A DNA stretch of 64,000 bases from Candidatus Sumerlaeota bacterium (GTDB lineage: Bacteria > Sumerlaeota > Sumerlaeia > JAFGJS01): contig JAFGJS010000037.1 in assembly GCA_016928995.1 (NCBI GenBank), positions 5,895 to 69,894 of the forward strand, read 5' to 3'. This document shows positions 45,737 to 64,000 of the stretch, in pieces. Positions within the stretch are counted from its first letter, which is position 1. Each line of letters begins with the position of its first letter. The translations under genes and the position numbers were made by a program. Under the pieces are notes generated by a model. The model ran no database searches, was not told where the DNA came from, and saw only the letters and a program-made list of their open reading frames with translations.

Positions 45737-45934
45737 GCCCCGGCGCTGTGCGACGGCAGCGCGATAGATTATTCGCTGTCGCGTTGCGCGATGACAGGAA
45801 CGCAGGCTAAATGCGCGGAGCTTCGGCTCCGCAGCGAAATTCACGGTTTTTTTTACACACCTGACGGCGCGCGATGGCGCCGGTTAATTCAGGGCGCATG
45901 ATTCCGCAAGCCGATAAGACTGGCTCAGCAGTTT

Positions 45935-47002
45935 GTGACGGCGCTTGCGGACGGGAGGCAAGAAACAATGATGAACCATGTGATGATTGAAGCGGCCAAT
46001 CTGGACGAGGCGTTGCGCGAGGCTTCGGAGCGCTTCGCCGTGCCGGTCGAGGCGTTGGAATATGAACGCTTGAATCTGCTGGATGAGGATGACTTGCTCA
46101 CGAGCAACATCTTCGAGGAAGACATCCAAAAAGACAGCGAATCGGTGAGCGTGCGCGTGTGGGTGAAGCACGACGCGCTGGCCGAGCGTGGGCGCGATGT
46201 TCTGCAGCGGCTGCTGGATAAAATGCAGGTCTCCGCTCAAGTGACGGTGGATGGCGTGGTCGGCATGCTGCAACTGGGCGTCAGCGCCAGCGCGGACAAC
46301 AATTTGCTGATCGGACGGCAGGGCGAAACGCTGGAGGCGCTGGAATATTTCGTCAATCGCGTCTTGAGCCGCGGCGGACTGGTGCCGCCGCCTGTGATCG
46401 TCGATATCGAGGAATACCGTCAGCGCCGCATCAAATACCTCGAAGACCTGGCGCGGAAAAAAGCGACGCGCGCCGTGAAAACGGGCAAGGAAATCAAACT
46501 GCTGCCGATGAAGCCGCATGAACGCAAGATCATGCACGCGATTCTGGCCGACTTCAAAGGAATCAAGACCTTCAGCATGGGGCTGGACGCTGAACGGCAT
46601 ATCGTCATCTCGCCGTCGGGCGAGTCCGCCGATCCTTCGCAATTCGTGGAAGAAGAGCGCGGCGGCCGGCGCACGGGCGGCCGTTCCGGTCAGGGCGGGC
46701 AGAATTGCGGAAGACAAAATCGTTCCTCTGGTATGCGCCGGGATCGCGACGGGGCTTCGAACGGCGGTCGCGGGAATGCAAATGGCGGACGTGGGAATAA
46801 TGCGAACGGCGGACGCGGGAATGCAAACGGCGGCGCGGGAAATGGCGCCAATCGCCGCAAACGTGGCGGCGTGCATCAAAATAATAGACGGACGCGGCGA
46901 ACGGACGACCGGTTTTTTGAATCCGGCCGCCCTGTGATCAATATGGAGAATATTCCCGATGACATTGGCAATCGCATCGATGATGAAGACCGCAACGTCT
47001 GA
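45935..47002 (+). CDS. Jag/KhpB-like RNA-binding protein (Jag_N, KH and R3H domains) with a Gly/Arg/Asn-rich repetitive C-terminal tail.
   Basis: R3H region (KLLPMKPHERKIMHAILADFKGIKTFSMGLDAERHIVISP); the tail is (GGRGNANG)n. Confidence 0.8.
   Translation: MTALADGRQETMMNHVMIEAANLDEALREASERFAVPVEALEYERLNLLDEDDLLTSNIFEEDIQKDSESVSVRVWVKHDALAERGRDVLQRLLDKMQVSAQVTVDGVVGMLQLGVSASADNNLLIGRQGETLEALEYFVNRVLSRGGLVPPPVIVDIEEYRQRRIKYLEDLARKKATRAVKTGKEIKLLPMKPHERKIMHAILADFKGIKTFSMGLDAERHIVISPSGESADPSQFVEEERGGRRTGGRSGQGGQNCGRQNRSSGMRRDRDGASNGGRGNANGGRGNNANGGRGNANGGAGNGANRRKRGGVHQNNRRTRRTDDRFFESGRPVINMENIPDDIGNRIDDEDRNV
46735..46860 (+). repeat. In-frame 24-nt tandem repeat (about 4-5 units) encoding the GGRGNANG repeats of the Jag tail.
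   Basis: GGCGGTCGCGGGAATGCAAAT GGCGGACGTGGGAATAATGCGAAC GGCGGACGCGGGAATGCAAAC GGCGGCGCGGGAAATGGCGCC. Confidence 0.5.
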
Positions 47003-47049
47003 TACGTTGCGCAAAGCGATGGTGAAATAAATCAGGGGCGCTCGCTAAC

Positions 47050-47090
47050 GAACGCCCCTGATTGTTTTATGGCGAAATTTCACGAAATGC
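47050..47090. terminator. Bidirectional Rho-independent terminator between convergent jag and trmB.
   Basis: 8-bp stem CAGGGGCG/CGCCCCTG with a 12-nt loop, followed by ATTGTTTTAT. It is also T-rich on the other strand. Confidence 0.6.
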
Positions 47091-47110
47091 GACATAGCGG
47101 TTGTTGAGAT

Positions 47111-47890
47111 TTACGCTTTCTTCAGCGCCTCCAGATAGAAAACCTTGGCGCCTTGGGCGCAGAGCTTGACCTCGAAGTTGGTGCGGAAGGCGGGTTCGAA
47201 ACGCACAGGATCGATCTCGCCGCTTTCGAGGATCTGCAGTGTTGTGTGTTCGTGCAGCAGGGCGTCGATCTCCCAGAAATACGATTCGTAATCCATCTTG
47301 ACGATCAGTTTGCATCCGGGCTTGAGTTTGCGTTCGAAAATCGGAACCGTATGCTCTTGAAACACGCGCCGCTTGCGATGGCGCTTTTTGGGCCATGGGT
47401 CCGAATAGAAAATATAGAGCGCGTCGAGCGAGGCGTCGGGGCAAAATTTTTCCAGGAACTCCACGCCGTCGTGCATGTATGTGCGCAGATTGGTCAGGTT
47501 GTCGCGGCAGGCGCGATAGAGGATCACGCGGCAGTATTTCAGCGCGCGTTCGATGGCGAAGTAATTCCGCTCAGGATCGCGCCGGGCGTGTTCGAGGATG
47601 AAACGCCCCTTGCCGGCGCCGAGCTCGAGCTCCACTGGATTGACATTGCCAAAGAGCTCGCTCCAGTTGATCGGCCCTTCCCAGCCTTCCGGCTCGACGT
47701 TGATCGTCTCAGGATCAAGCGCGAGTTTTTTCTCCAGCGATTTTGCGGTGATGCGTGTGGCCATGATTCGGTTCGTGACTTGGAATTTTAATGTCCGGGG
47801 CGCATTAAAACGCCTGATGTTCAAAATAACAGCCGCCATGTTTTGCGTTGCAAGGCGTGGCGCGATGCGATTAAGCTCATTTTTATTCAT
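47111..47890 (-). CDS. trmB: tRNA (guanine46-N7)-methyltransferase; the start is probably the internal Met near 47764.
   Basis: LELGAGKGRF (SAM motif I) ... FYSDPWPKKRHRKRR. Confidence 0.85.
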   Translation of the reverse strand: MNKNELNRIAPRLATQNMAAVILNIRRFNAPRTLKFQVTNRIMATRITAKSLEKKLALDPETINVEPEGWEGPINWSELFGNVNPVELELGAGKGRFILEHARRDPERNYFAIERALKYCRVILYRACRDNLTNLRTYMHDGVEFLEKFCPDASLDALYIFYSDPWPKKRHRKRRVFQEHTVPIFERKLKPGCKLIVKMDYESYFWEIDALLHEHTTLQILESGEIDPVRFEPAFRTNFEVKLCAQGAKVFYLEALKKA

Positions 47891-47898
47891 TTTACGCG

Positions 47899-49260
47899 TT
47901 GAATGAAAGCACTACCTTAATCATGACGACGGAAGCATCAACAGAAAATATCGGCGCGGCGCCGTTGGCGGAGGATGCGGAGCGGCCGGCGCTGCGTGTG
48001 CGCGGCTTGACCAAGCATCACAACATGGTCTTCCGTTCGGGGAGCCGCCTAGGGGCCTTCTTGTACGGCAACCTGCAGGATCGCCGCAACGTGCGGCGAT
48101 TTCTGGCGCTGGATGACGTGTCGTTCGATCTGCGACCGGGGCGGATGATGGTGCTCGTGGGGGACAACGGCGCGGGCAAAAGCACCCTGTTGCAGACCGT
48201 GGCGGGGATCACGAATCCCGACGCGGGCGCGGTGGAGGTCAACGGCCGCCTGAGCGCCTTGCTGGAGTTGGGATTCGGTTTTCATCCGGACCTGAACGGC
48301 TACGAGAATTGTTACCTGCAAGGTGCGATCCTGGGCATGCCGCGTTCGGAGATCGAACAGCGGCTGCCGGAGATCATGCGTTTCGCCGGCATCGGCGAGG
48401 CGATGGACCGCCCGGTGCGGCATTACTCCAACGGCATGTTCGCCCGGTTGGCCTTCAGCCTTTCCGCGCATGTCGATCCGGATCTGCTGCTGATTGACGA
48501 GATCCTGGCCGTCGGCGATCCGGGATTTCAGGAGCGATGCATTCAGCACATTCAGCGCATGCGCGAAAACGGCGTGGCCGTGCTGCTGGTGACGCACAGC
48601 CTGGCGATGGTCAGCATTATGGCCGACGACGCGCTGTGGCTGGAAAAAGGCCGCGTGGTGCGGCAAGGTCCGGCGCGCGAGGTGATCCGCGAATATAAGC
48701 GCACGGTCAACGAACGGCGCTTTGATCGCGGCGAGGAGCACGAGAGTGAATTCAATGCGACGCATCTGCATAGCAATCCACTCAAAACGCGCCGGCGCGA
48801 ATTGGTGAATCGCGTGCGGAGCTCCTTTGAGGGCGAGATCAAGGCCGTGCGGCTGCTGGACGGCGAGGGACGGCCTTACGATAAGCGCGCGCCGTTCGGC
48901 GATCTGACTGTCGAGGCGAATTACGATGTGCCGCAACCGGTGGAGGGGATGTTCCTCAAATGCCAGCTCATCAATCAGGACGGGTGGGTTGTGTCGCAGA
49001 GTTGCTCGCCGCCGGTCGAGGAGATTGATGGCTGGCCGCGCACGGGCCAGGTCCGGCTGCGCTTTGAGAAACTGGCCTTGTCGGACGGCCCGTATGCCAT
49101 TGTCGTGGGATTTTTCCATCCGGGCGATGAATCGAAGGACATTCGTCTGTGCGAAGCGCAGGCCGCATTGGAGATCGTGCCGGGTTACGTGCCCCAGGAT
49201 GGAATTTTTTGTTTCCTGCGCAGCAAAACCGCGCAGCGGAGCGTGATTGATGAAAAATGA
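47899..49260 (+). CDS. ABC transporter ATP-binding protein of the Wzt/TagH polysaccharide-export type with a C-terminal extra domain. No permease gene is adjacent.
   Basis: Walker A GDNGAGKST, signature and Walker B (LLLIDEILAVGD), H-loop (VTHSL), then a roughly 170-aa C-terminal beta-rich domain. Confidence 0.8.
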   Translation: MNESTTLIMTTEASTENIGAAPLAEDAERPALRVRGLTKHHNMVFRSGSRLGAFLYGNLQDRRNVRRFLALDDVSFDLRPGRMMVLVGDNGAGKSTLLQTVAGITNPDAGAVEVNGRLSALLELGFGFHPDLNGYENCYLQGAILGMPRSEIEQRLPEIMRFAGIGEAMDRPVRHYSNGMFARLAFSLSAHVDPDLLLIDEILAVGDPGFQERCIQHIQRMRENGVAVLLVTHSLAMVSIMADDALWLEKGRVVRQGPAREVIREYKRTVNERRFDRGEEHESEFNATHLHSNPLKTRRRELVNRVRSSFEGEIKAVRLLDGEGRPYDKRAPFGDLTVEANYDVPQPVEGMFLKCQLINQDGWVVSQSCSPPVEEIDGWPRTGQVRLRFEKLALSDGPYAIVVGFFHPGDESKDIRLCEAQAALEIVPGYVPQDGIFCFLRSKTAQRSVIDEK

Positions 49261-49325
49261 AACGTGTTTCCTTGAATGAATTGTGAGAGCGAAAGACTAC
49301 AATTAATATGTAAAGGCGTCGATCA

Positions 49326-49871
49326 TTGAATCCAAACGAGCACACACCGGAAGCCGATGCAGAGGAGATTCGCGGATTGCAACGGCTTTGCGAGGAGCGG
49401 ATCGCGGAGCGGCGTGAACTCGCGGCGAAGCAATTCCGCCGTGCGGAGGAGTTCCTTTGGTCGCTGCACACGCCGGAGCAGATCAACCGGCTGGTGGGCG
49501 ACATGCAGCGGCAGGGATACGCGGAGGGCGCGCGGCGTTCGTCCTGCGCCACGCGATGGCTGCCGCAACGGCTGTATTGCTGGCTGGCGCGCAAGGTCGC
49601 CGGGCCGTTCGCCGCGCCGTACGTGCAGGGGGCGCTGCTGAATTACAATTACGTATTGCGCGAAACAGCGCTGGATTTATACGCCGTGCTGGACCTGCGA
49701 TACGGACGGCCGGAAGAATTACTGAAGGCCGATGAGGGCAAGTCGCCCGCGAAGGATGATGAATTGCGCGCGCTCCGGCGCCTGCTCGATGCTTGCCAGG
49801 CGCGGCTCGATCAGCTTGATTCCAGCGGCAAGTTAAACAGCGACGACGGCGAGGGCGGCGTTCAATCATGA
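49326..49871 (+). CDS. Hypothetical soluble protein (181 aa).
   Basis: An ORF with a 4-nt stop/start overlap with the next gene. I recognise no motifs in it. Confidence 0.4.
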   Translation: MNPNEHTPEADAEEIRGLQRLCEERIAERRELAAKQFRRAEEFLWSLHTPEQINRLVGDMQRQGYAEGARRSSCATRWLPQRLYCWLARKVAGPFAAPYVQGALLNYNYVLRETALDLYAVLDLRYGRPEELLKADEGKSPAKDDELRALRRLLDACQARLDQLDSSGKLNSDDGEGGVQS

Positions 49872-51727
49872 TCGCTGGGGTGGATTTGCAATATTTGCTG
49901 GGACCGGGGCGCCGCGAGGAGTTCGGCCGGCGTCTGCTGAAGTTCTTCGCCCAATGGGCGCGCGATTTTCCCGACGACCCGTTGATCGGTTTCCATGTTA
50001 AGCCTATCGAGGATGGCGGCGCTTTACCGTTTCGGGAAATCCGGCGATGGCCGTTGCGGCGTCCGCTCAAGGCGTTGCTCGACGCCGGACCGATGACAGC
50101 GCAAGCCTGGGAGGATCAGGCGGGATGCGCGGAGCTGGACTGGCTGTTGATCCCTGGTCCGCTGGATGAATCCACGCTGTTGCCGGGCGGCGCTCCCTGC
50201 CGCATCGCCGCCATCGTGAGCGACGCGGACTTGCGCCGTTTCACGCGCACGCCGCGTCTGCCCGATGCGAGCATCGCCGGCCGCAACACGCTGAGCAACC
50301 GGCTGCAAGTTTTGCAGAATTACGAACGGGTCTTTTTTTTCACGGACATCGAAACGCCGCCTCAACGTCTGTCCGGTCTGGCCGACAAGATCGAGTTCAG
50401 CGAAAAAAGCGGCAATGAATATAATCATCGCGGCTATGATCCGGCTGTTTTTCGCGGCCAATTGCAGGAGCGCATCCAGAATTTTCCCGCGATTCAATCC
50501 GCGGCCCCGGCCGCCGGAAAAGCCAAACGCAAGCTGGCCGTGTTCACGCCGCTGCGGCCGGTGCGCTCGGGAATTTCCGACTACAGCGAGCATCTGCTTG
50601 CGCAGCTGGCCGATGATTTTGAGATCACTGTTTTTCTCGACGGCTATCACCCGGCACGGCAGGAGCTCTTTCCGCCGTTACGCTGGCATCACGCGGCGGA
50701 CTTCGAGCGCTGGCTGCGCGCCGGGAATGAGGACGCCGCTCTGGTGTATGTGATGGGCAACAACGAATGCCATCGCAACATTTATCACTGGTCGCGGCGC
50801 GCGCCGGGGATCATGGAATTCCATGACGACGTTCCTCTGGCGTATGGCATGCATGACCGCAACTTCTGGATGAACCGGCTCGATTGGCTGGAATTGGTTG
50901 AACAGGAGCACGGCCGCACATTGGAGGAACTGCACCGCAATCCGCCCGACGATGAGACGTTATGCGACCTGCTGCCCATGACGCGCGCCTTCGCCGACGG
51001 CCAGCGCGGCTGCATCGTGCACAACGAATGGCTTGGCGAGCAGGTGCGCGGCAACTGTCCGCAACTGCCGGTCTGCAACACCGGACTGGGTGTGGATTGG
51101 CCGGAACCGCCGCATGAAAACGGCGCGCGGCGCGCGGCCCTGCGAGCCAAATTCGGCGTGCGGGAGAGCCATGCGCTTTTCATCGTCATTGGCGAGATCA
51201 ATCCATTCAAGCGCTTTGAGCAGATTTTCCGCGGCTTCAGCATCGCGCGCATGGCCTGCCCGGATATCATTCTGATTGTGGCCGGCGGCGCGCAGGATGA
51301 AGCGCTTAACCGCTATATCGCGGACGGCATGGAGCGCTATGGTCTGGACGACGGCGCGGCGATACGATTGGGATATCTGGAGCGTGAGGATTTCCTCGGT
51401 TTGATCGATGCGGCGGACGCCGGCATCAACCTGCGCTGGCCCACGCTCGGCGAGACCAGCGCCACGCTGACTCAATTGATGGGCGCGGGCAAGCCCGTGC
51501 TTGTCACTAACCGCTGTCAATTCAAGGAATACCCGGACGAAGCCTGCTGGAAAATCGAGCCCGGCGAACGCGAGGCAGAGCGCATCGCGCAGGCCATCGT
51601 CGCCCTGGCGCGCCATCCGCGTCATCGCCGCGCCATCGGCGCCTTTGCGCAAGATTACATCGCGCGTTTTTCCTGGGACCAGGTCGCCGCGCGCTTTCGT
51701 GATTTCATCGAGCAGGTTTATGGCTGA
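49868..51727 (+). CDS. Glycosyltransferase family 4 (GT-B) C-terminal domain fused to a roughly 300-aa N-terminal domain of unknown function.
   Basis: C-terminal FIVIGEINPFKRFEQI ... ADAGINLRWPTLGETSATLTQLMGAGKPVL (GT4 EX7E-like region). Confidence 0.7.
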   Translation: MIAGVDLQYLLGPGRREEFGRRLLKFFAQWARDFPDDPLIGFHVKPIEDGGALPFREIRRWPLRRPLKALLDAGPMTAQAWEDQAGCAELDWLLIPGPLDESTLLPGGAPCRIAAIVSDADLRRFTRTPRLPDASIAGRNTLSNRLQVLQNYERVFFFTDIETPPQRLSGLADKIEFSEKSGNEYNHRGYDPAVFRGQLQERIQNFPAIQSAAPAAGKAKRKLAVFTPLRPVRSGISDYSEHLLAQLADDFEITVFLDGYHPARQELFPPLRWHHAADFERWLRAGNEDAALVYVMGNNECHRNIYHWSRRAPGIMEFHDDVPLAYGMHDRNFWMNRLDWLELVEQEHGRTLEELHRNPPDDETLCDLLPMTRAFADGQRGCIVHNEWLGEQVRGNCPQLPVCNTGLGVDWPEPPHENGARRAALRAKFGVRESHALFIVIGEINPFKRFEQIFRGFSIARMACPDIILIVAGGAQDEALNRYIADGMERYGLDDGAAIRLGYLEREDFLGLIDAADAGINLRWPTLGETSATLTQLMGAGKPVLVTNRCQFKEYPDEACWKIEPGEREAERIAQAIVALARHPRHRRAIGAFAQDYIARFSWDQVAARFRDFIEQVYG

Positions 51728-52406: not shown

Positions 52407-53717
52407 TCATCTTTCATATTGCGAGTATATTTTTCGCGCTTCGTCGGCGATGATGCTGAGGCCGCGTTGGACGGTCGCTTCGTTTTGGGCGTAGCTGATG
52501 CGGAGGCATTCGTCGCGCTGTTTCCATTCGCCTTCGAGGCCAGGAAAGAAGTGGCGGCCGGGCACAACCAGCACGCCGCGGGCTTTGAGGCGTTCGTAAA
52601 ATTCCTGCGAGCTGATGGGCAGATCGCGAAACCATAGCCAAAGGAAGAACGCGCCTTCGGGTTTATGCACGCGGCAGTCGATGCCGCGCAGCTCGCGGCG
52701 CAATTGCTCGACGGCGCGGTCGGCGCGCGACTGGTAGTAGGGCCGGATCACGTCGCGGCCAAGGCTGAGCAGTTTGTCTTCGCGGATGAGTTCATTGGCC
52801 AAGGTTGCGCCGATGCGGTTCGGCGCGAGGCACATGATCGCGCTGGCGGCGGAGATGGCGGCGATGATTTCCTCGCTGGCCACGACGATGCCGGTGCGCA
52901 GGGCGGGCAGGCCGAATTTGCTCAGGCTCATGCAGAGTATCGTGCGCGGACTCCATTGCGGCGCGGCGTCGCTGAAGACGATGCCGGGAAACGGCAGTCC
53001 GTAAGCGCCGTCGATGATCAGCGGCACGTCGCGCTCCTCGGCGAGGCGCATCAGGCGCTGCGTCTCCTCGTCGCTCATCATGTTCCCCGTGGGATTCGTC
53101 GGGCGCGAAAAGCAGATCGCGCCGGCGTCGTCAACGGCCTCCAGGCGCTGGAAATCGACGTGGTACTTGAACAGCAGATCGTCGATGTATTCGATCTCCG
53201 GCTGGACGGCGCGGAAGATGCCAGGCTCCAACCCCACGTCGGAATAGCCGATGTATTCCGGCGCGAGCGGCAGCAGAATTTTTTTGAACGAGCCGTCGCC
53301 ATAGCGTCCGGCGAACATATTGAACAGGATGAAGAACGCTCCTTGGCTGCCCGTGGTCAGCGCGATGTTGCGCGGTCCGACGTCCCAGCCGCATTCCCGG
53401 TGCAGCAGCGCGGCGAGCGATTCGATGAAAGCCGGGTTGCCCTGCGGCGAATCGTAATCGCCGATGGCGCGCTCGAATGCGCCGTCGCGCTCCAGGATGC
53501 GCTGCATGGCGCCGCGGATGCATTGCTGCACCTCGGGGATATGGGCCGGATTGCCGCCGCCGAGCATCAGCATGCCCTTTTCGGAGAGCGCACGGCCCAA
53601 GTCGTCCATCAACAGATTGATGCCGGAGTTGCTCGTAATCTTTTGGCCGAATGTTGAAAGTTTCATTCTGTTTTTTTCAGGCTTTCTTGCGCCAGTTGTT
53701 CGGTCATTCTTCGTCAA
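52407..53717 (-). CDS. PLP-dependent class I aminotransferase (valine-pyruvate / AvtA-like).
   Basis: Fold-type I motifs; SLSKFGLPALRTGIVVA contains the PLP-binding Lys context. Confidence 0.8.
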   Translation of the reverse strand: MTKNDRTTGARKPEKNRMKLSTFGQKITSNSGINLLMDDLGRALSEKGMLMLGGGNPAHIPEVQQCIRGAMQRILERDGAFERAIGDYDSPQGNPAFIESLAALLHRECGWDVGPRNIALTTGSQGAFFILFNMFAGRYGDGSFKKILLPLAPEYIGYSDVGLEPGIFRAVQPEIEYIDDLLFKYHVDFQRLEAVDDAGAICFSRPTNPTGNMMSDEETQRLMRLAEERDVPLIIDGAYGLPFPGIVFSDAAPQWSPRTILCMSLSKFGLPALRTGIVVASEEIIAAISAASAIMCLAPNRIGATLANELIREDKLLSLGRDVIRPYYQSRADRAVEQLRRELRGIDCRVHKPEGAFFLWLWFRDLPISSQEFYERLKARGVLVVPGRHFFPGLEGEWKQRDECLRISYAQNEATVQRGLSIIADEARKIYSQYER

Positions 53718-55104
53718 ACAATTCGTACTTCAGCATTTTATTATGCAGACTTTTGCGGCTGATACCGAGCAGGTCGGCGGCCTCTTGACGCCGGCCTTCC
53801 ACCTTGCGCAAGGCAGCGAGGATCATCTTGATCTCCAGTTTGGCGGTCTGCTCTTCGATCACGTCGCTCATGGATTGCGAGAAATCGAAGCCGCTCATCG
53901 ATAGATCGCCGGATTCATCCGTCTGCGGTTCAAGGCTGGCCGGCAGTGACGGGAGATGTTGCGGTTGCACCACGCCCTCACCGGTCAGCACCACGCCGCG
54001 TTGCACGGCGTTTTGCAGCTGGCGGATGTTCCCTGGCCAATTATACGAAACAAGGATGTCCATCGCTTCCGGATCGATGGAACGCACATCCTTGTTGAAG
54101 GCTTTTGAATAGTGGTCCAGGAAGTGATGCACCAGCAGCGGCAAGTCCTCCATGCGTTCGCGCAACGGCGGCGCCTCGATGGAGATCACATTGAGCCGGT
54201 AGAATAAATCCTCGCGAAACTTGCCCTGGTTCACTTCGGCTTGCAGGTTCCGGTTGGTCGCGGCGATCACGCGCAGGTCCACATGGATCGTCTGCACGCT
54301 GCCCACGCGCGAGATTTCCCGCTCCTGCAGCGTGCGGAGGAGCTTCGGCTGGAGGCTCAGCGGAATCTCGCCGATCTCATCAAGGAAAATCGAGCCGCCG
54401 CTCGCCGTTTCGAACAGCCCCTGCTTGCGCTGAAAGGCGCCGGTGAACGCGCCCTTTTCATGGCCGAAAAGCTCGCTTTCCAACAGCGTGTCCGGGATCG
54501 CCGCGCAGTTCACCTTGGTCAAATCCTGGTCGCGGCGCTGGCTGAGCGCATGGATCGCCTCGGCGATGAGCTCCTTGCCCGTGCCGCTCTCGCCGGTGAT
54601 CAGCACCGTCGCGTCGGAGTCGGCCACGCGCTGGATCATTTCGAACACGCGCTTCATCGCCGCGCTTTCGCCGATGATGTTCTGATACGCCGAGTGGCTG
54701 CGCAGCTGCGTTTGCAACTCCGCCACGCGGCGGGCCAGCGCGGCGCGCTCCACGGCCCGGCCGACGACCGTGCGCAGCTCCTGAATGTCGAAGGGCTTGT
54801 GAAACAGATCATACGCGCCGAGCTCATAAGCCTCGCGCGCGACCTTGGGCGAGCCGTAGGCCGTGACGATCAGGCAGACGGAAGACGGGCGCTTGTCGCG
54901 GATTTGCTTCATCGCCTCGATGCCGCCGAGGCGCGGCATCTTGATGTCGAGGATGATCACGTCGAAAACGGATTCCTGCGCTTTATCCACGGCCTGCTGT
55001 CCGTCCACGGCCTCGTCGATCTCATATCCCTCGCGGCGCAGCATTTCGCGCAGTGTCAAACGCACATTCAATTCATCATCGGCAATGAGGATTTTCGGCG
55101 ACAA
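53704..55104 (-). CDS. Sigma-54-dependent transcriptional response regulator (NtrC family: REC, AAA+ and Fis-type HTH).
   Basis: [15 protein letters not shown] Walker A, the GAFTGA sigma-54 contact motif and a C-terminal HTH ([16 protein letters not shown]). It overlaps the aminotransferase start by 14 nt. Confidence 0.9.
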
Positions 55105-55235: not shown

Positions 55236-55310
55236 GCGCGTGTAGCACAATGGCTAGTGCATCGGCCTTCCAAGCCGAGGATACGGGTTCGATTCCCGTC
55301 ACGCGCTCCA
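55236..55310 (+). tRNA. tRNA-Gly (anticodon UCC) with encoded CCA.
   Basis: Hand-folded cloverleaf: acceptor GCGCGTG/CACGCGC, D-arm GCAC-AATGGCT-AGTGC, anticodon stem TCGGC/GCCGA with loop CTTCCAA, and T-arm ACGGG-TTCGATT-CCCGT. Confidence 0.85.
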
Positions 55311-55497: not shown

Positions 55498-57039
55498 TTA
55501 TCGTTCGTATTGCAATTCGTCATTGGATTCTGTTTCGGCTGCGCCCGGTTTCCATGATGAGGCTGGACCTGAAGTTTGTTTTCCATAAGAAATGATAGCT
55601 TCGCTTAACTGGCTTCCCGTAACCGGAATGGGCGCTTTGATGAGTTCGGGAATATTATAGGCCCAGGCCAGCGAATCATAGTACGCCGGATTCTGCTGAG
55701 GCAGCAGAAACGGCTTGTGCGCCACGCCATTCGCATCGACATAACTGAAGAACGGCCGGGAAAAACGGCCATCAAGGCGTTTGCTGTTGAAAGCAATCCA
55801 GCGGCCATTGCTCGACCAGCTGTGCCAGGTGTCGGGCCGTTTGCTGCTGATGGATAGTTTGCGGTGTTCGCCGCTCTCCATATCCATCAGGTATAAGTCG
55901 CACTGGGCCTGGTGAATGGGAAAGTCGCTGTATGGCGAAACGTTGAACAAGAGGAACCGGTCATCGGGCGAGAATCGCGGCTGGTTGATGCTGCCGTCCA
56001 CTGCTTTCGCGGATAGAACCGTCTCCAGCTCGCCCCATTCGCCGCTTTCCGCATCATAGCGGATTCGCATTAAGTCGCAGCGCACTTCACGATAGCGTTC
56101 CTTCGGGAGCTGCGGCGCGCTGCAGAAATACAAGTATCGGCCGTCGCGGGACCATTCTGGAAATGTCTCCATGCGATCGATCTTGCTGATCTTGTTTTCT
56201 CGGATGACTTCTCGCGTATCCAGGCGGTACAGGTCCAAATCGCAGGCGAGGTCGAACACGTCGCGCACTTCCTGGACCTTCGTATGGATCAGCATCTGGA
56301 ATTTGTTGTCGGTGATGGCCAGAAGCTTGCCATTGGGATGCCAGGCGGAAAAACCGGTCTTCCCGGACGTCAGTTCGGTTTTCGTGCTGATGGGTTCGAC
56401 TTGATTATTTTCAACCAGCAACATGGGGGTGCCGTATGTTGAGGATCTTGCCTGAAGCGCCATATGATGGGGATCATTATTGAGATAAGAATGGCAGTGC
56501 ATGCACCCATAGCTGAACAACCGGTTATGCAATACGACGGATTCTTCGTAGTTTTCCAGATTCCTTTGATAGAAGCCCATGTCGTTCCAGATCACCGAAA
56601 TCATGATTTTCCGGTATGTTAAGAAAGGGTCGATGCCAGCGTCCGCAACGGTGTTTTCAATCGTCTCGAAGCGGCTCCAGTTGTTCTCGCTGTCTTTCAC
56701 GTATACATCAAAATAAAGTTTCCGCCCATGGTTGGCGTCCAGCAGTTTTTTCCAACGATCCACCGGGATTTCAATGTCTGGCTTTCGACTGTGAATTTCG
56801 ATGGGATCGCCGTCTTTGGAGTAAATTTTCACATAATGACCGGCGCCGTTTTCTTCGATCAGAAAATTCAGGGGAGCGATATTCGGAGGGATGACGACGC
56901 CGCAATAGTCCGGACGGATTTTAGCGGGACGGTCGATTGAGCGGGATGCATCGATGACCGCCGTCTTATCGCATTGGGTGAAAACCAACGCGCAAGCCAA
57001 CAATGCTAACGTCAATGTCGATGATGCCGTAGTTCTCAT
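55498..57039 (-). CDS. Secreted PD40/TolB-like beta-propeller protein with a conserved CxxCH motif (module copy A).
   Basis: Signal peptide ending in VFTQC. PD40-like repeats (WHPNGKLLA, WSRDGRYLYF, FSPDDRFLLF, WSSNGRWIAF). GCMHCH at about 56489-56506. Confidence 0.6.
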   Translation of the reverse strand: MRTTASSTLTLALLACALVFTQCDKTAVIDASRSIDRPAKIRPDYCGVVIPPNIAPLNFLIEENGAGHYVKIYSKDGDPIEIHSRKPDIEIPVDRWKKLLDANHGRKLYFDVYVKDSENNWSRFETIENTVADAGIDPFLTYRKIMISVIWNDMGFYQRNLENYEESVVLHNRLFSYGCMHCHSYLNNDPHHMALQARSSTYGTPMLLVENNQVEPISTKTELTSGKTGFSAWHPNGKLLAITDNKFQMLIHTKVQEVRDVFDLACDLDLYRLDTREVIRENKISKIDRMETFPEWSRDGRYLYFCSAPQLPKERYREVRCDLMRIRYDAESGEWGELETVLSAKAVDGSINQPRFSPDDRFLLFNVSPYSDFPIHQAQCDLYLMDMESGEHRKLSISSKRPDTWHSWSSNGRWIAFNSKRLDGRFSRPFFSYVDANGVAHKPFLLPQQNPAYYDSLAWAYNIPELIKAPIPVTGSQLSEAIISYGKQTSGPASSWKPGAAETESNDELQYER

Positions 57040-57164: not shown

Positions 57165-59189
57165 TTACCGTATCAATTGACTCCCTGAAAATCCATAGAC
57201 GTTGTAGAAATAATAAGTGTCGCCGAATTTATCCGCCAATTCGGTCAAGGCCGCCTGTTTATCGTTATGCTTATTCAATATATTGATGAGCTCCTGAAGC
57301 CGTGTGATCGATTCCGGACTGATTTCATAGCCATATAAATCCGGTCTTTGACCCGTGGTCTGCATATAGATGACCAATGCTTCCTCAAACGCTCGCGGGA
57401 GCGTGGCATACTGAAAATCGCGCAGACGTTCGATATTATTAACAATCTCCAACACCTCTCTGCGCTGAAAATAACTGGCCATTAAGTATTCAAAGGCCAT
57501 TCGGTTATGCTTGTTTTGGGCGAGCAACTCGGTCAGCGAGCCTTCGTTGATACTGTCATCATCCGGTATCAGGGAACGAATCCGTTGGATTTCCTCGTCC
57601 GAGGAAAAATCAGGATCCTCTTCGAGCCGGTCCAACAGCTCCTGCGCCTGGTCCCTGTAGAGGAAATCCTCGCGCAGGATGCGCAACAACGCGCGGGCGG
57701 TCTCTGGTTGCCGCTTGACGATGTTGATCAGGGCCAGCCGCTTCAATGCCTGCGGATGGTATTTCAATCCCGCCAAAGCGTCCCAGGCGAAGTTCTCGGC
57801 TTCATTGACGCGGCCCAGCTCATAATAAGTCTCGCTGAGATCTAAAAATCGGGCCCTTCTTTCCATGGCGCTTAACGATCTTGATGCCGCTTCGACGTGA
57901 TAAAGACACCAGTCGATTGGCTGGGGATAGGCGAACATCTCATCAAGCAACCGGCCGCTATGGTAGAGCGCTCGATTGACATCATGGCAATAACAGACGT
58001 TGAAGTATTTCGTGCCAAGGTTGCGGGCTTCGTACAGAACTTCATTCCACATCCGCTGCTGGGAGTAAAAGCGGATGCGAAGATAATGTCTTTCTTGATG
58101 ATTCGTTGATAGCAGGACGACGCAGATTAGGATAATCAGCAGAATTATCGCGGATAACATACCATGCGATGGGTTTGCATTCTGGCTCGTATCGGCTTTG
58201 CTTTGCTGAATCTTATCGTCTTTGCTTTTCCGGCTTTTCTTTTTTCGGGCTTTGCCCTTATCGGCATCGACGCGCCTGAATCGGTTCTGGAGCTTGTCGC
58301 TGTTGTAGCGCCAATACACACTGGCCAATCCGGCGATCGGAAAAAAAACATAGAGAAAATAATAGAGCACGGGTCCATTAAAATAAACGGATAATGGGTC
58401 GTAGGGCAGGACTGCCGGATCATTGGGCAGGATGCAGAGATATACTTCGGCGGCGCTGATGTCGAACAGCAGCGCGCTGACTACGATGGGGATCAGCGCC
58501 GCTGAGATCAACGCCCCAAGATCCACAAGCCAAGCGCGTTTAACGAGCAATTCGTACAGCGCGCAGAGCATCACGAAAGGCAGATATGCGAAAACCGCCG
58601 CGTAGTAAATCACAGCGGAAAAAAACAAAAACAAGATGAAGCGAAGCGCGCCGCGCCGTATGCATGCGCGAGTATAAAGATAGAACAGCAGCAGACCAAG
58701 CGCGATGGATAAGTTCTCCATCATGAAGTGATAGTAGCGGCTGTATTGCAGCAGAACCACAATCGCCGGAATGAAGCGGAGCGCCCGCAGCCGTCCGTCG
58801 CTCATCACGTCCAGGCATTGGCCGGTTCCCCAGCTCAGCAACCAGGCGACAGCGGTGATGATCAGCGCTCCCGCCCATGAATAGTGGAAACAATAGAGCA
58901 GCACGCCCGCCGCGCACATCGCCGTCTTGCCGGGAAAACCTGGTATCTGCTCAAATCCCCCCGAACCCGGAACGTAAGGCGGCAGGCGCCAATAGCTCAT
59001 AATGCTGCAGTGAAGCAGCCTCGGATCGAGATAGAGGAAGATATAAAGAAAAAACAAGAGATAAAAAAACAGGTGAAAAAAAAACGTCGCGCGCCATCCG
59101 TCCCTCGCCGCATCTGTATTTGGCGCGTCAACCATCGTTTGCTGCTCCTGCAGAATTGAAGATTCAGTAGCATCAAGCCATGCCTGCAA
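57165..59189 (-). CDS. Polytopic membrane protein (about 10 TM) with a poly-basic loop and a C-terminal TPR-like helical domain (module copy A).
   Basis: The hydrophobic N-terminal half has an RKKKSRKSK loop. The C-terminal roughly 330 aa is helical-repeat-like. It is a paralogue of 61014..63065. Confidence 0.55.
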   Translation of the reverse strand: MQAWLDATESSILQEQQTMVDAPNTDAARDGWRATFFFHLFFYLLFFLYIFLYLDPRLLHCSIMSYWRLPPYVPGSGGFEQIPGFPGKTAMCAAGVLLYCFHYSWAGALIITAVAWLLSWGTGQCLDVMSDGRLRALRFIPAIVVLLQYSRYYHFMMENLSIALGLLLFYLYTRACIRRGALRFILFLFFSAVIYYAAVFAYLPFVMLCALYELLVKRAWLVDLGALISAALIPIVVSALLFDISAAEVYLCILPNDPAVLPYDPLSVYFNGPVLYYFLYVFFPIAGLASVYWRYNSDKLQNRFRRVDADKGKARKKKSRKSKDDKIQQSKADTSQNANPSHGMLSAIILLIILICVVLLSTNHQERHYLRIRFYSQQRMWNEVLYEARNLGTKYFNVCYCHDVNRALYHSGRLLDEMFAYPQPIDWCLYHVEAASRSLSAMERRARFLDLSETYYELGRVNEAENFAWDALAGLKYHPQALKRLALINIVKRQPETARALLRILREDFLYRDQAQELLDRLEEDPDFSSDEEIQRIRSLIPDDDSINEGSLTELLAQNKHNRMAFEYLMASYFQRREVLEIVNNIERLRDFQYATLPRAFEEALVIYMQTTGQRPDLYGYEISPESITRLQELINILNKHNDKQAALTELADKFGDTYYFYNVYGFSGSQLIR

Positions 59190-59395: not shown

Positions 59396-60940
59396 TTATT
59401 GTTCGTATTGGGATCCGGCATTGGCATTTGTATTCGCCGTGCCCGGCTCCCATGAGGAAGCTTGACCTGGGATGAGTTTTTTATATGAAACGATGGCTTC
59501 GCTCAACTGACTTCCCTTCACCTGGATTGGCGACTTGATCAGTTCGGGAACCTGCAGCACCCAGACTAACTTGTCATAGTATGCCGGATCCTTTTGAGGC
59601 AGCACAAAGGGTTTGTGCGCCTCGCCGGTCTCGTCTACATAACTGATAAAGGGCCGGGAAAAACGGCCATCGATGCGACGGCTGCTGAACACGATCCAGC
59701 GGCTGTTGCTGCTCCAGCTGTGCCATGATTCGTTTTGTTCGCTGCTGATGGACAGCCTGCGATGCTCGCCGTTGGACAAATCCAGCATATGCAAATCGGA
59801 TTTGAGCTTATCCACGGGAAAATCGCTATGATCCGCAACGTTGAATAAAAGAAACCGGCCGTCGGGCGAGAAGCGCGGCTGGTTGATGCTGCCGTTCACT
59901 TCCTTTGCGGTCAGGACGGTCTCCAGTTCACCCCACTCTCCGCTTTCCATGTCGTAGCGGATTCGCATCAAATCGCATCGCACCTGGTGATAGAGTTCCT
60001 CAGGCAGTTGCGGCGCGCTGCAGAAATACAGGTATCGCCCATCGCGGGACCACTCTGGAAAAGTCTCCATGCGTTTCGGATTGCTGATCTTGCTATTGCT
60101 GATAACCTCTCCGGTTTCCACGCGATACAGATCCAGATCGCTGGCGTGGTCGAACACGTCGCGCACTTCCTCGGCGTTCGTATGGATCAGCATTTGGAAT
60201 TTATTGTCGCTGATGGCAAGCAGCTTGCCGCTGGGATGCCAAGCGACGAAGTTGACTTTGCCGGACGTCTGATCGGACTTCACACGTTTGGGCATGACTT
60301 CATCATTTTCGACCAGCAGCATCGGCGTGCCATATGCGCCGGATCTTGTCTGCAGCACCATATGATTCGGATCGTTGTTGAGGAAAGTATGACAATTCAC
60401 GCATCCGTAGCCGAACGACCGGTTGTGCAACACCACCGATTCATCGTAGTTTTCCAGATTCCGTTGATAAATGCCCAGATTTCTCCAGATGAGGCAAAGT
60501 TGGATTCGCCGGTACGCCAGGTAAGGATCAATCTCCTCCTGCGTGATGGAATTCTCGATCGGCTCGAACCGGCTCCAGTTGTTTTCGCGGTCTTTCACAG
60601 ATACTTCAAAATAAAGTTTCCGCCCGCGGTTGGAGTCCAGCAGTTTTTTCCAACGATCCACCGGGATTTCAATATCTGGCTTTCGACTGTGAATCTCGAT
60701 AGGATCGCCGTCTTTGGAGTAAATTTTCACATAATGACCGGCGCCGTTCTCTTCGATGAGAAAATTCAAGGGGGCGATATTCGGAGGGATGACGACGCCG
60801 CAATAGTCCGGACGGATTTTCGCGGGACGGTCGACAGAGCGGGATGCACCGACGGCGGCCTGCTTGCCGCACTGGACAAAAACCAACGCGCAAACTGACA
60901 ATGCCGCAAACGTCAATGTCAATGATATCCTCGTTTTCAT
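59396..60940 (-). CDS. Secreted PD40/TolB-like beta-propeller protein with a CxxCH motif (module copy B).
   Basis: Paralogue of 55498..57039. GCVNCH at about 60385-60405. The N-terminal roughly 110 aa is nearly identical to copy A. Confidence 0.6.
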   Translation of the reverse strand: MKTRISLTLTFAALSVCALVFVQCGKQAAVGASRSVDRPAKIRPDYCGVVIPPNIAPLNFLIEENGAGHYVKIYSKDGDPIEIHSRKPDIEIPVDRWKKLLDSNRGRKLYFEVSVKDRENNWSRFEPIENSITQEEIDPYLAYRRIQLCLIWRNLGIYQRNLENYDESVVLHNRSFGYGCVNCHTFLNNDPNHMVLQTRSGAYGTPMLLVENDEVMPKRVKSDQTSGKVNFVAWHPSGKLLAISDNKFQMLIHTNAEEVRDVFDHASDLDLYRVETGEVISNSKISNPKRMETFPEWSRDGRYLYFCSAPQLPEELYHQVRCDLMRIRYDMESGEWGELETVLTAKEVNGSINQPRFSPDGRFLLFNVADHSDFPVDKLKSDLHMLDLSNGEHRRLSISSEQNESWHSWSSNSRWIVFSSRRIDGRFSRPFISYVDETGEAHKPFVLPQKDPAYYDKLVWVLQVPELIKSPIQVKGSQLSEAIVSYKKLIPGQASSWEPGTANTNANAGSQYEQ

Positions 60941-61013: not shown

Positions 61014-63065
61014 TCACCGTATCAACTGACATCCTGCAAAGCCATAGATGTTATAGAAATAATATGTGCCGCCGAATTGATCCGCCAATTCGTTCAAAGC
61101 CGCCTGTTGATCGCCATACTTACTCGATGCGCTGAGGAAAGTTTGGAATCGCTTGAGCGATTCCGGGCTGATTTCATAACCATGTAAATCCGGTTTTTCA
61201 CCCGTGGTCTGAGTATAGATGAGCAATGCTTCCTCAAGCGCTCGCGGGATTGCGGAATAATGAAATTCACTCAGACGTTCGATGTTTTGAACGATCTCCG
61301 GAACCTTTCCGCGCTGAAGATAATCGACCATTAAGTATTCAAACGCCATCCGGTTATGCTTGTTTTTGGCGAGCAACTCTTCGAGAGAACACCCATAGAT
61401 GCTGTCGTTGTCCGGCGTCAGGGAACGGACTTGTTGAATTTCCTCGTCCGCAGAAAAATCAGGATCTGCCTCGAGCCGGTCCAACAGTTTCTGCGCCTGG
61501 TCCCTGTAAAAAAAATCCTCACGCAAGGTGAGCAGGAACGTGCGCGCGGTATCCGGCCGGCGCTTGACGATATTGATCAAGGCCAGCCGCTTCAAGCCCA
61601 TTGGATGGTATTGCAGCCCCGTCAAGGCGTCCAAGGCGTAGTGTTCGGCGCCATTGACGCGCCCCAGTTCATAAAAAGTCTCGCTGAGATCCAAAAATCG
61701 AGCCCTTTTTTCCATCGCAGATAATGATCTTGATGCAGCTTCCACATTATAAAGGCACCAGCCGGTTGGTTGGGGATAGGCGAACATGTCATCAAGCAGC
61801 CGGCCGCTATGATAGAGCGCTCGATTGACATCATGGCAATAGCAGACGTTGAAGCGTTCCGCCTCGAGTTTGCGGCCTTCGCGCAGAACATCGTCCCACA
61901 TCCGCTGCTGAGAATAATAGCGAATGCGAAGATAGTGTCGTTCTTGATGATTCGTTGAAAACAGGACGGCGCTGAAAATGACAATCAGCAGGATCGCCGC
62001 AGATAACATGCCCTGCGATTGGCTTGCAATCTGGCTTGTATCGGCTTTGCTTTGCTCAATCTTGCCTTTTTTGTTTTTCCGCTCTTTCTTTTTTTGGGCT
62101 TTGCCCTTATTGGCCTTGAAACGTCTGAATCGATCCTGGAGCTTGTCGCCGTTATAGCGCCAATACACGCAAGCCAATCCAGCGATCGGAAAAAAAACAT
62201 AGAGAAAATAATAGAGCACGGGTCCATGAAAATAAACGGTTAATGGATCGTACGGCACGATTGCCGGATCATTGGGCAGGATGCAAAGATATGCTTCGGC
62301 GGCATTGATGTCGAACAGCAGCGCGCTAATCGCGAGGGGGATCAGCGCCGCTGAGGCCAGCGTCCCAAGACCAACAAGCCAAGCTCGTTTGATCAGCGAT
62401 TCATACAGCGCGCAAAGCATCACGAACGGCAGATATGCGAATACCGCCGCGTAGTAGATCGCGACGGAAAAAATTAAAAACAGAACGAAGCGAAGCGTGC
62501 CACGCCGCATGCATGCGCGAGTATAAAGGTAAAACAGCAGCAGACCAAGCGCGAGCGATATATTCTCCATCAGGTAGTGATGGTAGCGGCTGTATTGCAG
62601 CAGGACCACAATCGCCGGAATGAAGCGAAACGCCCGCAGCCGACCGCCGCTTATCGCATCCAGGCATTGGCCGGTTCCCCAACTCAGCAGTCCGGCGGCG
62701 GCGGTGATGATCAGCGCTCCCGCCCATGAATAGTGGAAACAATAGAGCAGCACACCCGCTGCACACACTGCGGTTTTGCCGGGAAAATCCGGCATTTCCA
62801 CAAATCCTCCCGAGCCCGGAACGTAAGGCGGCAGACGCCAAAAGCTAGGAAGACTGAAGTGAATCAGCCTTGGATCGAGATAGAGGAAGATATAAAGAAA
62901 AAACAGGAGATAAAAAAACAGGCTAAAAAAAAACGCCTCGCGCCTCCCGCCGTTCGCTGCATCTGAATGCGGCGCGTCAACCATCGTCCGCTGCTCCCGC
63001 GGTGTTTTTGCAGAATTGAAAATCCAATAGCAACAAGCCATGCCTGCAATCCGCGCGAAAGTCAA
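61014..63065 (-). CDS. Polytopic membrane protein with a C-terminal TPR-like domain (module copy B).
   Basis: Paralogue of 57165..59189, with the same architecture and a similar poly-basic loop (QKKKERKNKKGK). Confidence 0.55.
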   Translation of the reverse strand: MTFARIAGMACCYWIFNSAKTPREQRTMVDAPHSDAANGGRREAFFFSLFFYLLFFLYIFLYLDPRLIHFSLPSFWRLPPYVPGSGGFVEMPDFPGKTAVCAAGVLLYCFHYSWAGALIITAAAGLLSWGTGQCLDAISGGRLRAFRFIPAIVVLLQYSRYHHYLMENISLALGLLLFYLYTRACMRRGTLRFVLFLIFSVAIYYAAVFAYLPFVMLCALYESLIKRAWLVGLGTLASAALIPLAISALLFDINAAEAYLCILPNDPAIVPYDPLTVYFHGPVLYYFLYVFFPIAGLACVYWRYNGDKLQDRFRRFKANKGKAQKKKERKNKKGKIEQSKADTSQIASQSQGMLSAAILLIVIFSAVLFSTNHQERHYLRIRYYSQQRMWDDVLREGRKLEAERFNVCYCHDVNRALYHSGRLLDDMFAYPQPTGWCLYNVEAASRSLSAMEKRARFLDLSETFYELGRVNGAEHYALDALTGLQYHPMGLKRLALINIVKRRPDTARTFLLTLREDFFYRDQAQKLLDRLEADPDFSADEEIQQVRSLTPDNDSIYGCSLEELLAKNKHNRMAFEYLMVDYLQRGKVPEIVQNIERLSEFHYSAIPRALEEALLIYTQTTGEKPDLHGYEISPESLKRFQTFLSASSKYGDQQAALNELADQFGGTYYFYNIYGFAGCQLIR

Positions 63066-63209: not shown

Positions 63210-64000
63210 TCATTCAAGCCGTTTCCGGTAATACTCCTGAACGATAAAGAAGGCCTGCTTGCGTTCGCCGCGCTCGGAGACGAGGCCCTTGCGATTCCAG
63301 CCGTCCTGGATGCCGGGCAACATGCGCAGCGGCGTGCGGAAGTCGACCAGAACCCAGGGCGCACAGCCGCGGAAATTGGCGATCCGCTCCAGCATGGGAA
63401 ACGACTCACGATAGACCCACGCCTGGAACTCCTCCGTCCAACGCGTCTCTTTGTCCCCGTGAAAACCAAACAGCGCGCCGGCGCCAAACTCGCTGATGAT
63501 CAGCGGCTTGTCGAAGCGCACTTCGTAATCGCTGGTCTTGCATGCATCGGGCAGGCCGTCGTACCAGCCGATATATTGATTGAGCGCAATCACATCCAGC
63601 TGCTCTCCGAGAGCGTCGCTGATGACCTTCTTGCCTGTGCCTTCGATCTTGTCCGGTTGCAGCGCCGCGCTGACCAGCCGCGTGTCATCGAGGCTCCGCA
63701 CATGATCGGCCATCGCCTTCAGGAATTTATTGCGCGGCTCCGTCCTTCCCGTTTCGTTGCAGATCGACCAGATGATCACGGCGGCGCGGTTGCGGTCGCG
63801 GTTGATCATCTCGCCCATCTGGCGTTTGGCGTTTTCCAGGACTTGGTCGTCGCCCCAATGGATGCCCCAGTAAAGCGGCAATTCCCCCCACAACAGGATT
63901 CCCCACTCATCGGCGAGCCGGATGATGTTTTCATTATGCGGATAGTGCGCCAGCCGGACGAAGTTGCAATTCAATTCCTTGGCGTAACCCAGAAATCGCT
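63210..64000 (-). CDS. Glycoside hydrolase family 2 (beta-galactosidase/beta-glucuronidase-like) TIM-barrel domain; 5'-partial, the N-terminus lies beyond the window end.
   Basis: NFVRLAHYP ... IIWSICNE (catalytic acid context) ... ISEFG (nucleophile context). Confidence 0.8.
   Translation of the reverse strand, partial: RFLGYAKELNCNFVRLAHYPHNENIIRLADEWGILLWGELPLYWGIHWGDDQVLENAKRQMGEMINRDRNRAAVIIWSICNETGRTEPRNKFLKAMADHVRSLDDTRLVSAALQPDKIEGTGKKVISDALGEQLDVIALNQYIGWYDGLPDACKTSDYEVRFDKPLIISEFGAGALFGFHGDKETRWTEEFQAWVYRESFPMLERIANFRGCAPWVLVDFRTPLRMLPGIQDGWNRKGLVSERGERKQAFFIVQEYYRKRLE

Follow-up and report, generated by a model that had tools for sequence, protein, structure and literature searches.

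Covalent haem c is combined with a periplasmic β-propeller in cytochrome cd1 nitrite reductase, in the quinohaemoprotein dehydrogenases and in HZS_alpha (PF18582), and in each of these the haem belongs to a cytochrome domain of its own, which is largely helical. Cytochrome f and cytochrome P460 also carry one haem c on a mainly β scaffold; the haem motif of cytochrome f is CANCH and so of the C-x-N-C-H form, and the CxxCH of both proteins lies in a short helix. TolB, a periplasmic protein made up of an N-terminal domain and a six-bladed propeller with PD40 repeats, is without this motif. Here we describe two paralogous genes in a 64-kb stretch of DNA from a Candidatus Sumerlaeota bacterium (contig JAFGJS010000037.1; the whole stretch is referred to as the window), which encode exported, TolB-like PD40 propeller proteins (copies A and B) that each contain one CxxCH motif and are each encoded beside a DUF6057 membrane protein. 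The best reading of the motif is that of a putative single covalent c-type haem site, to which we assign a rough probability of 0.55, and its novelty would lie in the setting of this probable c-type haem site, whose scaffold and protein partner are both unusual.

The initial annotation had placed a haem c-binding-like motif in both paralogues, at positions that bracket it in each copy, and we confirmed CMHCH in copy A, where the codons were checked, and CVNCH in copy B. The surrounding stretches, SYGCMHCHSYLNNDPHHM in copy A (residues 176-193; window 56461-56514) and GYGCVNCHTFLNNDPNHM in copy B (residues 177-194; window 60359-60412), are identical at 12 of 18 positions; residue numbers given below are those of copy A unless stated. 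Selection on the motif had been argued from its presence in two proteins taken to be about 65% identical in this region. The shared motif is real, but the copies are 72% identical overall, and a motif shared by A and B alone is therefore close to chance expectation and weak evidence by itself. Copy A is 100% identical to an NCBI entry named 'PD40 domain-containing protein' from a Candidatus Sumerlaeota metagenome-assembled genome (MAG).

Selection on the motif was instead established across the family. Exactly one CxxCH was present at the same place in all of the 120 best database matches (45-100% identity). A search of representatives of 50%-identity clusters gave 453 matches below 1e-30, and among the best 149 of these, which extend down to 31% identity, the motif was found in 144, with the five exceptions comprising three N-terminally truncated fragments that start past the motif and two full-length proteins with true losses (P0263 and P0269). 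Likewise, all 176 full-length copies in 164 fetched loci, which were scanned using alignment A1 as the diverse alignment A2 was too divergent, carry CxxCH. When 350 non-identical members, spanning more than ten phyla and reaching down to ~30% identity, were pooled and aligned, exactly one intact CxxCH was found at this column in 348, in the forms CxNCH (307), CxHCH (40) and CxSCH (1), with zero Cys/His swaps and zero changes in spacing. Its carriers include Planctomycetota, Verrucomicrobiota, Bacteroidota, Chloroflexota, Ignavibacteriota, KSB1 and WOR-3, and the mean column identity is ~30%. The family itself is large, with more than 4,000 matches at E below 1e-5 from a single database search. 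An apparent archaeal member, at a locus (L058) whose contig is binned as 'Methanomicrobia archaeon' and which has a typical DUF6057-propeller pair and a RidA-like gene, was set aside as most likely a binning error.

Residues C179, C182 and H183 are each 99.4-99.7% conserved, a His being present at the H183 position in 349 of the 350 members, and rank among the top seven of 476 aligned columns together with R143, R198, G300 and W414. Other strongly conserved positions are the arginines R143, R159 and R198 (98.6-100%), H234 (97%), E291 (95%), H406 (93%), H252 (87%) and C306 (80%). The conservation of the flanking NNDP.HM, also proposed from the two copies, holds for close relatives only and is moderate family-wide (N188 67%, P190 67%, M193 77%). 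Similarly, alignment of homologues, which had been suggested as a check on the invariance of both CxxCH and the downstream His, upheld the former and not the latter, with the H192 column occupied mostly by K/R/N/T. Of the two full-length proteins without the motif, P0263 has SMGCY at its position and has lost R198 as well, and P0269 has lost the whole motif and kept R198, with H234 and the rest of the fold retained in both. Each is without at least two of the three motif residues, the +1 His (Tyr in one) and at least one Cys being gone. As judged from the alignments, CxxCH behaves as one unit under extreme, family-wide selection.

The fold and export of the propeller protein had been predicted correctly. 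Both copies score well above the cut-off of the PD40 model (PF07676; 48.6 and 54.9 bits against 20.9), and an AlphaFold2 (AF2) model of copy A, built on a 76-sequence alignment and read through its secondary-structure string, has a predicted local distance difference test score (pLDDT) of 90.7. In this model an N-terminal helix is followed by a β-sandwich (~33-131), strands at 139-171, a hairpin (179-186/189-199) bearing the CxxCH, and the propeller blades. The best PDB matches of the model with Foldseek are TolB structures (E 3e-14 to ~1e-13 over ~390 columns), followed by propellers of S9 peptidases. Profile-profile comparison resolved residues 223-458 into four mutually matching PD40 repeats (hhalign probability 93-97%), with no PD40-repeat signal in residues 136-175 and 176-222, and the CxxCH segment is therefore a specialised insert that completes the propeller and not an ordinary blade. 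On the model, the protein has the N-terminal β-sandwich, then the non-canonical β segment (136-222) and the four PD40 blades, which would close into a TolB-like six-bladed propeller. Pfam searches with the N-terminal domain, the isolated motif segment and the DUF6057 halves returned nothing beyond DUF6057, PD40 and weak TPR matches, and the NCBI label 'cytochrome C biosynthesis protein', borne by some homologues, was treated as uninformative.

A hydrophobic N-terminal signal or anchor is present in 232 of 242 full-length relatives, and conservation reaches 77% in a lipobox-type Cys column close to residue 23. The box of the two window copies is of a non-canonical form, VF(T/V)QC, and we therefore describe them as exported and membrane-tethered and do not insist on lipidation. 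Over the N-terminal β-sandwich the DNA of copies A and B is 94-97% identical (56750-56930 against 60650-60830), compared with ~80% elsewhere, and residues 36-101 are identical in the two proteins, which suggests gene conversion or very strong constraint in this region.

TolB is the closest structural relative and is similar in its PD40 repeats, periplasmic location and overall arrangement. However, the family scores only 36.9 bits on the TolB equivalog model TIGR02800 against a cut-off of 343, its N-terminal domain is all-β, its CxxCH is invariant, and its partner is DUF6057 and not TolA/Pal. Furthermore, no tol-pal genes (tolQRA/pal) were seen among the annotated flanking genes, and identity as TolB was rejected on both the equivalog model and the genomic context. 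The propeller cytochromes resemble the family in combining a periplasmic β-propeller with covalent haem c (putative here), but the family motif sits inside the β segment that completes the propeller, and Pfam searches detected the HZS_alpha middle domain (PF18582) in neither copy, nor in the motif segment by itself. Cytochrome f and P460 likewise share a single haem c (putative here) on a mainly β scaffold, but no sequence or fold similarity between them and the family was detected.

The partnership with a membrane protein, which had also been anticipated, is a property of the family. Both genes upstream of the window copies match PF19529 over nearly its full length (569 positions), and of the 151 loci with room for an upstream gene, 127 have DUF6057 immediately before the propeller gene and in the same orientation (69/81 from genomes and 58/70 from metagenomes), often with an overlap of 4 nt between the two open reading frames (ORFs). 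In some proteins the two are fused: in P0146 (1138 amino acids) the propeller protein comes after a complete DUF6057, and P0155 and P0240 join the C-terminal domain of DUF6057 alone to the propeller protein, P0155 starting with a signal and lipobox of its own and continuing with that domain and then the propeller protein. An AF2 model of D1, the partner of copy A, has ~10 membrane helices that are separated by a Lys/Arg-rich loop from one last membrane helix, after which comes a 300-residue helical TPR-like domain (pLDDT 84.3). The loop (KGKARKKKSRKSKDDK...; 58140-58290, DUF6057 residues ~300-335) is of low complexity and low model confidence, recurs at the same place in D2 and is probably cytoplasmic. 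Taken with the fusions, in particular that of P0155 with its signal and lipobox, this places the TPR-like C-terminal domain in the periplasm, and the fusions together with this location argue for direct contact between DUF6057 and the propeller protein. The DUF6057 model gave no significant PDB fold match with Foldseek, only weak TPR matches; a relationship to GT-C glycosyltransferases was unsupported (PglB at E 0.2 only), and the NCBI label 'US12 family protein' was treated as uninformative. DUF6057 has no assigned function, and a search of a literature library found no description of it, of its pairing with a propeller, or of PD40 or other propeller proteins with CXXCH.

Pairs of this kind are multiplied within genomes, with at least six in the MAG studied here, three to four in tandem on a Planctomycetota chromosome, and three in the MAG that carries loci L078 and L169, and such numbers of paralogous pairs suggest copy-specific substrates or signals.

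Haem attachment is favoured by conservation of the triad as a unit, by export of the protein, and by a spacing that is exactly that used by haem lyases. Further support comes from gene order. The genes ccsB and ccsA encode a System II cytochrome c synthase, and at locus L078 (4134-9948) the DUF6057 and propeller genes are followed in one operon by tightly spaced genes for ResB/CcsB and CcsA (a gap of 8 nt, then an overlap of 4 nt). At the metagenomic locus L139 (2-4722) a shortened CcsB fused to CcsA occupies the same place after the propeller gene, with 76% identity between the two propeller proteins and 58% between the CcsA sequences. By a rough estimate, chance would give ~0.02 cases of such immediate downstream adjacency in ~84 loci, and this ccsBA could be a haem lyase dedicated to the propeller protein as its client. 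The L078/L139 clade was placed close to WOR-3, in which cytochrome c-dependent respiration is reported in only a minority of genomes (PMC12542636), and this would make a co-encoded haem lyase more pointed. The host phylum is itself reported to make c-type cytochromes, as Sumerlaeota have been described with aa3 oxidase, bc1/ACIII and NrfAH (PMC8092238).

Several results weigh against a haem at this site. AF2 confidently sets the CxxCH in a β-hairpin (local pLDDT 93-95) and makes it part of the first strand. The CxxCH of known haem c sites sits in a helical turn, and the residues Cys i and Cys i+3 of a regular strand point to opposite sides. Such a strand would bar the two cysteines from cooperating in haem, metal or disulfide chemistry, and their joint invariance in spite of this points to a local difference between the holo conformation and the model, which weakens the AF2 result as a discriminator and does not remove it. 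Pfam cytochrome families gave zero matches to the motif segment even at E = 10, a family profile of the motif-bearing N-terminal half retrieved solved cytochromes from the PDB sequences only as noise (NapB at E 2.2, over the motif only), and the Foldseek matches of copy A comprised TolB and peptidase propellers with no cytochrome. The motifs of copies A and B are the only CxxCH sequences among ~55 non-overlapping ORFs of at least 100 amino acids in the window. Cytochromes are encoded by just 10 of 858 flanking ORFs (7/466 and 3/392), so no dedicated electron-transfer chain or partner is evident. In the DUF6057 alignment no conserved His was found in the membrane helices; the protein is therefore not of the cytochrome b type and offers no obvious haem b or quinol partner. 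Finally, just one lineage among the 164 loci shows the ccsBA linkage, and its extension across the WOR-3-like clade was ruled out, as it is missing from the WOR-3 relatives L167 and L168 and from pairs in the same MAG as L078 (L169).

The rival that survives best, which we regard as possible but rather unlikely, is a non-haem metal centre (Zn, Fe or Cu) formed by the CxxCH triad with H234, H252, E291 and H406 from neighbouring blades. It would lie on an inner propeller strand close to the central channel, which houses the metal of many six-bladed propeller enzymes, with R143, R159 and R198 binding an anionic substrate. AF2 confidently assigns the motif to the first strand of a hairpin that resembles a blade, which fits this arrangement, as do the polar residues H234, E291 and H406, conserved on the first strand of one blade after another, and the near-invariance of the three arginines, and a metal centre would sit comfortably with the lack of any cytochrome-domain signal in the Pfam and PDB profile searches and of redox partners encoded nearby. 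However, two Cys on a regular strand cannot share one ion either, and the AF2 geometry consequently favours neither a haem nor a metal. Cys-ligated sites are also uncommon in the oxidising periplasm, Cys/His interchange is usual in families of metal sites and is not seen once in the 350 sequences, and a metal centre would not explain why ccsB-ccsA come immediately after the propeller gene at L078 and L139.

A redox-active or structural disulfide, in which the adjacent His tunes the reactivity of a cofactor-free CxxC, is improbable. A CxxC in an exported protein could form one, and there is no other highly conserved Cys with which either residue might pair elsewhere (C306 reaches only 80%), but the model is an all-β propeller with no thioredoxin-like fold. 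Furthermore, the +1 His is as invariant as the cysteines, and it is needed for haem c and not by thiol-disulfide oxidoreductases; both motif-loss proteins lost this His along with at least one Cys. That the motif is a functionless chance leftover of a recent duplication, an idea to which the limited divergence of the window copies might lend some colour since shared residues prove little at 72% identity, has next to no probability, being refuted by its retention in nearly all aligned relatives across many phyla.

The motif most likely binds a cofactor, probably covalent haem, in a two-protein membrane system. In the haem c reading, Cys179 and Cys182 would form the thioether bonds to haem and H183 would be the proximal iron ligand, with maturation taking place in the periplasm via System II (CcsBA). 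The sixth ligand could be H234 or M193; for additional ligands H406 and H252, as well as these two, are better candidates than H192. R198, retained in 349 of the 350 relatives, may partner a haem propionate or bind an anion. The propeller protein would form an obligate pair with the DUF6057 protein encoded upstream, docking on the periplasmic TPR-like C-terminal domain, and the pair has been multiplied into many paralogous copies per genome. The haem may then act in the periplasm as a centre for redox chemistry or ligand binding, and we infer that the family is a periplasmic haem-dependent redox or ligand-binding module acting with DUF6057. The three invariant Arg and several conserved His and Glu residues of the propeller are more suggestive of a pocket for binding or catalysis than of a simple electron shuttle. 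Conservation of the motif, the export signals, the pairing and fusion of the genes and the fold are shown here, whereas the attachment of haem, its ligands, the docking and a redox or sensing role, the last as proposed in the initial annotation, are inferred.

In the window, the four genes lie on the minus strand as two tandem units, each with a DUF6057 gene followed by a propeller gene, in the order D2, copy B, D1 and copy A (Table 1). The units are a tandem duplicate of ~3.9 kb with ~80% DNA identity.

Table 1. Positions in the window of the DUF6057-propeller genes and of the sites discussed in the text.
Feature	Position	Strand	Description
Copy A (P1)	55498-57039	-	513 amino acids; exported PD40/TolB-like β-propeller with one CxxCH; Pfam PD40 E 6.9e-13
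Copy B (P2)	59396-60940	-	514 amino acids; paralogue of copy A (72% identical)
CMHCH, copy A	56491-56505	-	C179 56503-56505; C182 56494-56496; H183 56491-56493
CVNCH, copy B	60389-60403	-	C180, C183 and H184 (copy B numbering)
R198 codon, copy A	56446-56448	-	15 residues past H183
H234 codon, copy A	56338-56340	-	W-H-P in first canonical PD40 blade (W-S-P in other blades)
N-terminal hydrophobic signal/anchor, copy A	56971-57039	-	Ends at C23; non-canonical lipobox VFTQC; AF2 helix 4-30
D1, DUF6057 polytopic membrane protein	57165-59189	-	674 amino acids; partner of copy A; PF19529 E 3.8e-77
D2, DUF6057 membrane protein	61014-63065	-	683 amino acids; partner of copy B; PF19529 E 2.1e-77; 75% identical to D1

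A tRNA-Gly gene (anticodon TCC; 55236-55310, plus strand) lies between copy A and a gene for a sigma-54-dependent response regulator (53704-55104, minus strand). A functional link between the pair and this regulator was considered and dropped, since the tRNA on the opposite strand intervenes and other loci do not conserve the regulator gene. Within 45884-51727, a few kb away, are genes for an ABC transporter ATPase of the Wzt type (47899-49260) and a glycosyltransferase of the GT1 type (49868-51727), and a GH2 fragment (63210-63974) is located just upstream of the pairs; all of these may be no more than neighbours of the DUF6057-propeller pairs.

Across the fetched loci, recurrent neighbours of the pair are a RidA/FkbO-like protein, an SGNH-plus-TPR protein, PA14 proteins, sulfatases, GFO/IDH/MocA oxidoreductases and glycoside hydrolases. 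The first of these is a protein of 380-400 amino acids with a C-terminal RidA domain, which adjoins the propeller gene in 27 of 164 loci (for example L080 7706-8854, L078 9907-11106 and L006 3539-4737), is not found in the window, and distantly resembles the FkbO/Hyg5 chorismatases (below cut-off; PDB 4bps E 1e-6). The second, of 700-850 amino acids, has a weakly SGNH/GDSL hydrolase-like N-terminus and many TPR, and occurs near the pair in L068 (1714-4260), L003 (13088-15172) and ~12 more loci. Two loci (L073 3056-5965 and L075 2-2785) encode large proteins with an HZS_alpha middle domain (PF18582) and carbohydrate-binding modules (F5/8 type C or PL4 CBM-like), each with two to three CxxCH; in that of L075, a PD40 repeat of borderline score and a cytochrome c match below threshold were seen as well. 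The neighbouring genes fit a polysaccharide-degrading lifestyle, although such genes are common in these genomes anyway.

The propeller proteins make up a large family that spans many phyla of sediment and anaerobic-digester bacteria, with several copies per genome and no assigned function, and the invariant cofactor-type motif provides a concrete experimental handle on both the family and DUF6057. We tentatively suggest that they might represent a new class of c-type cytochrome, with one haem covalently attached within the β structure of a TolB-like propeller that is locked to a dedicated polytopic DUF6057 partner. Genomes of the polysaccharide-degrading PVC, FCB and related bacteria would then each encode many such pairs, differing in substrate; in the largely fermentative lineages near WOR-3, such proteins could be a principal client of the co-encoded CcsBA haem lyase. 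If the site does bind haem c, a propeller-embedded β site would be added to the known cytochrome c architectures, and domain-based counts of c-type cytochromes would be missing a widespread group. If it instead holds a metal, the family would caution against equating every conserved periplasmic CxxCH with haem. On either reading, the motif marks a large uncharacterised family.

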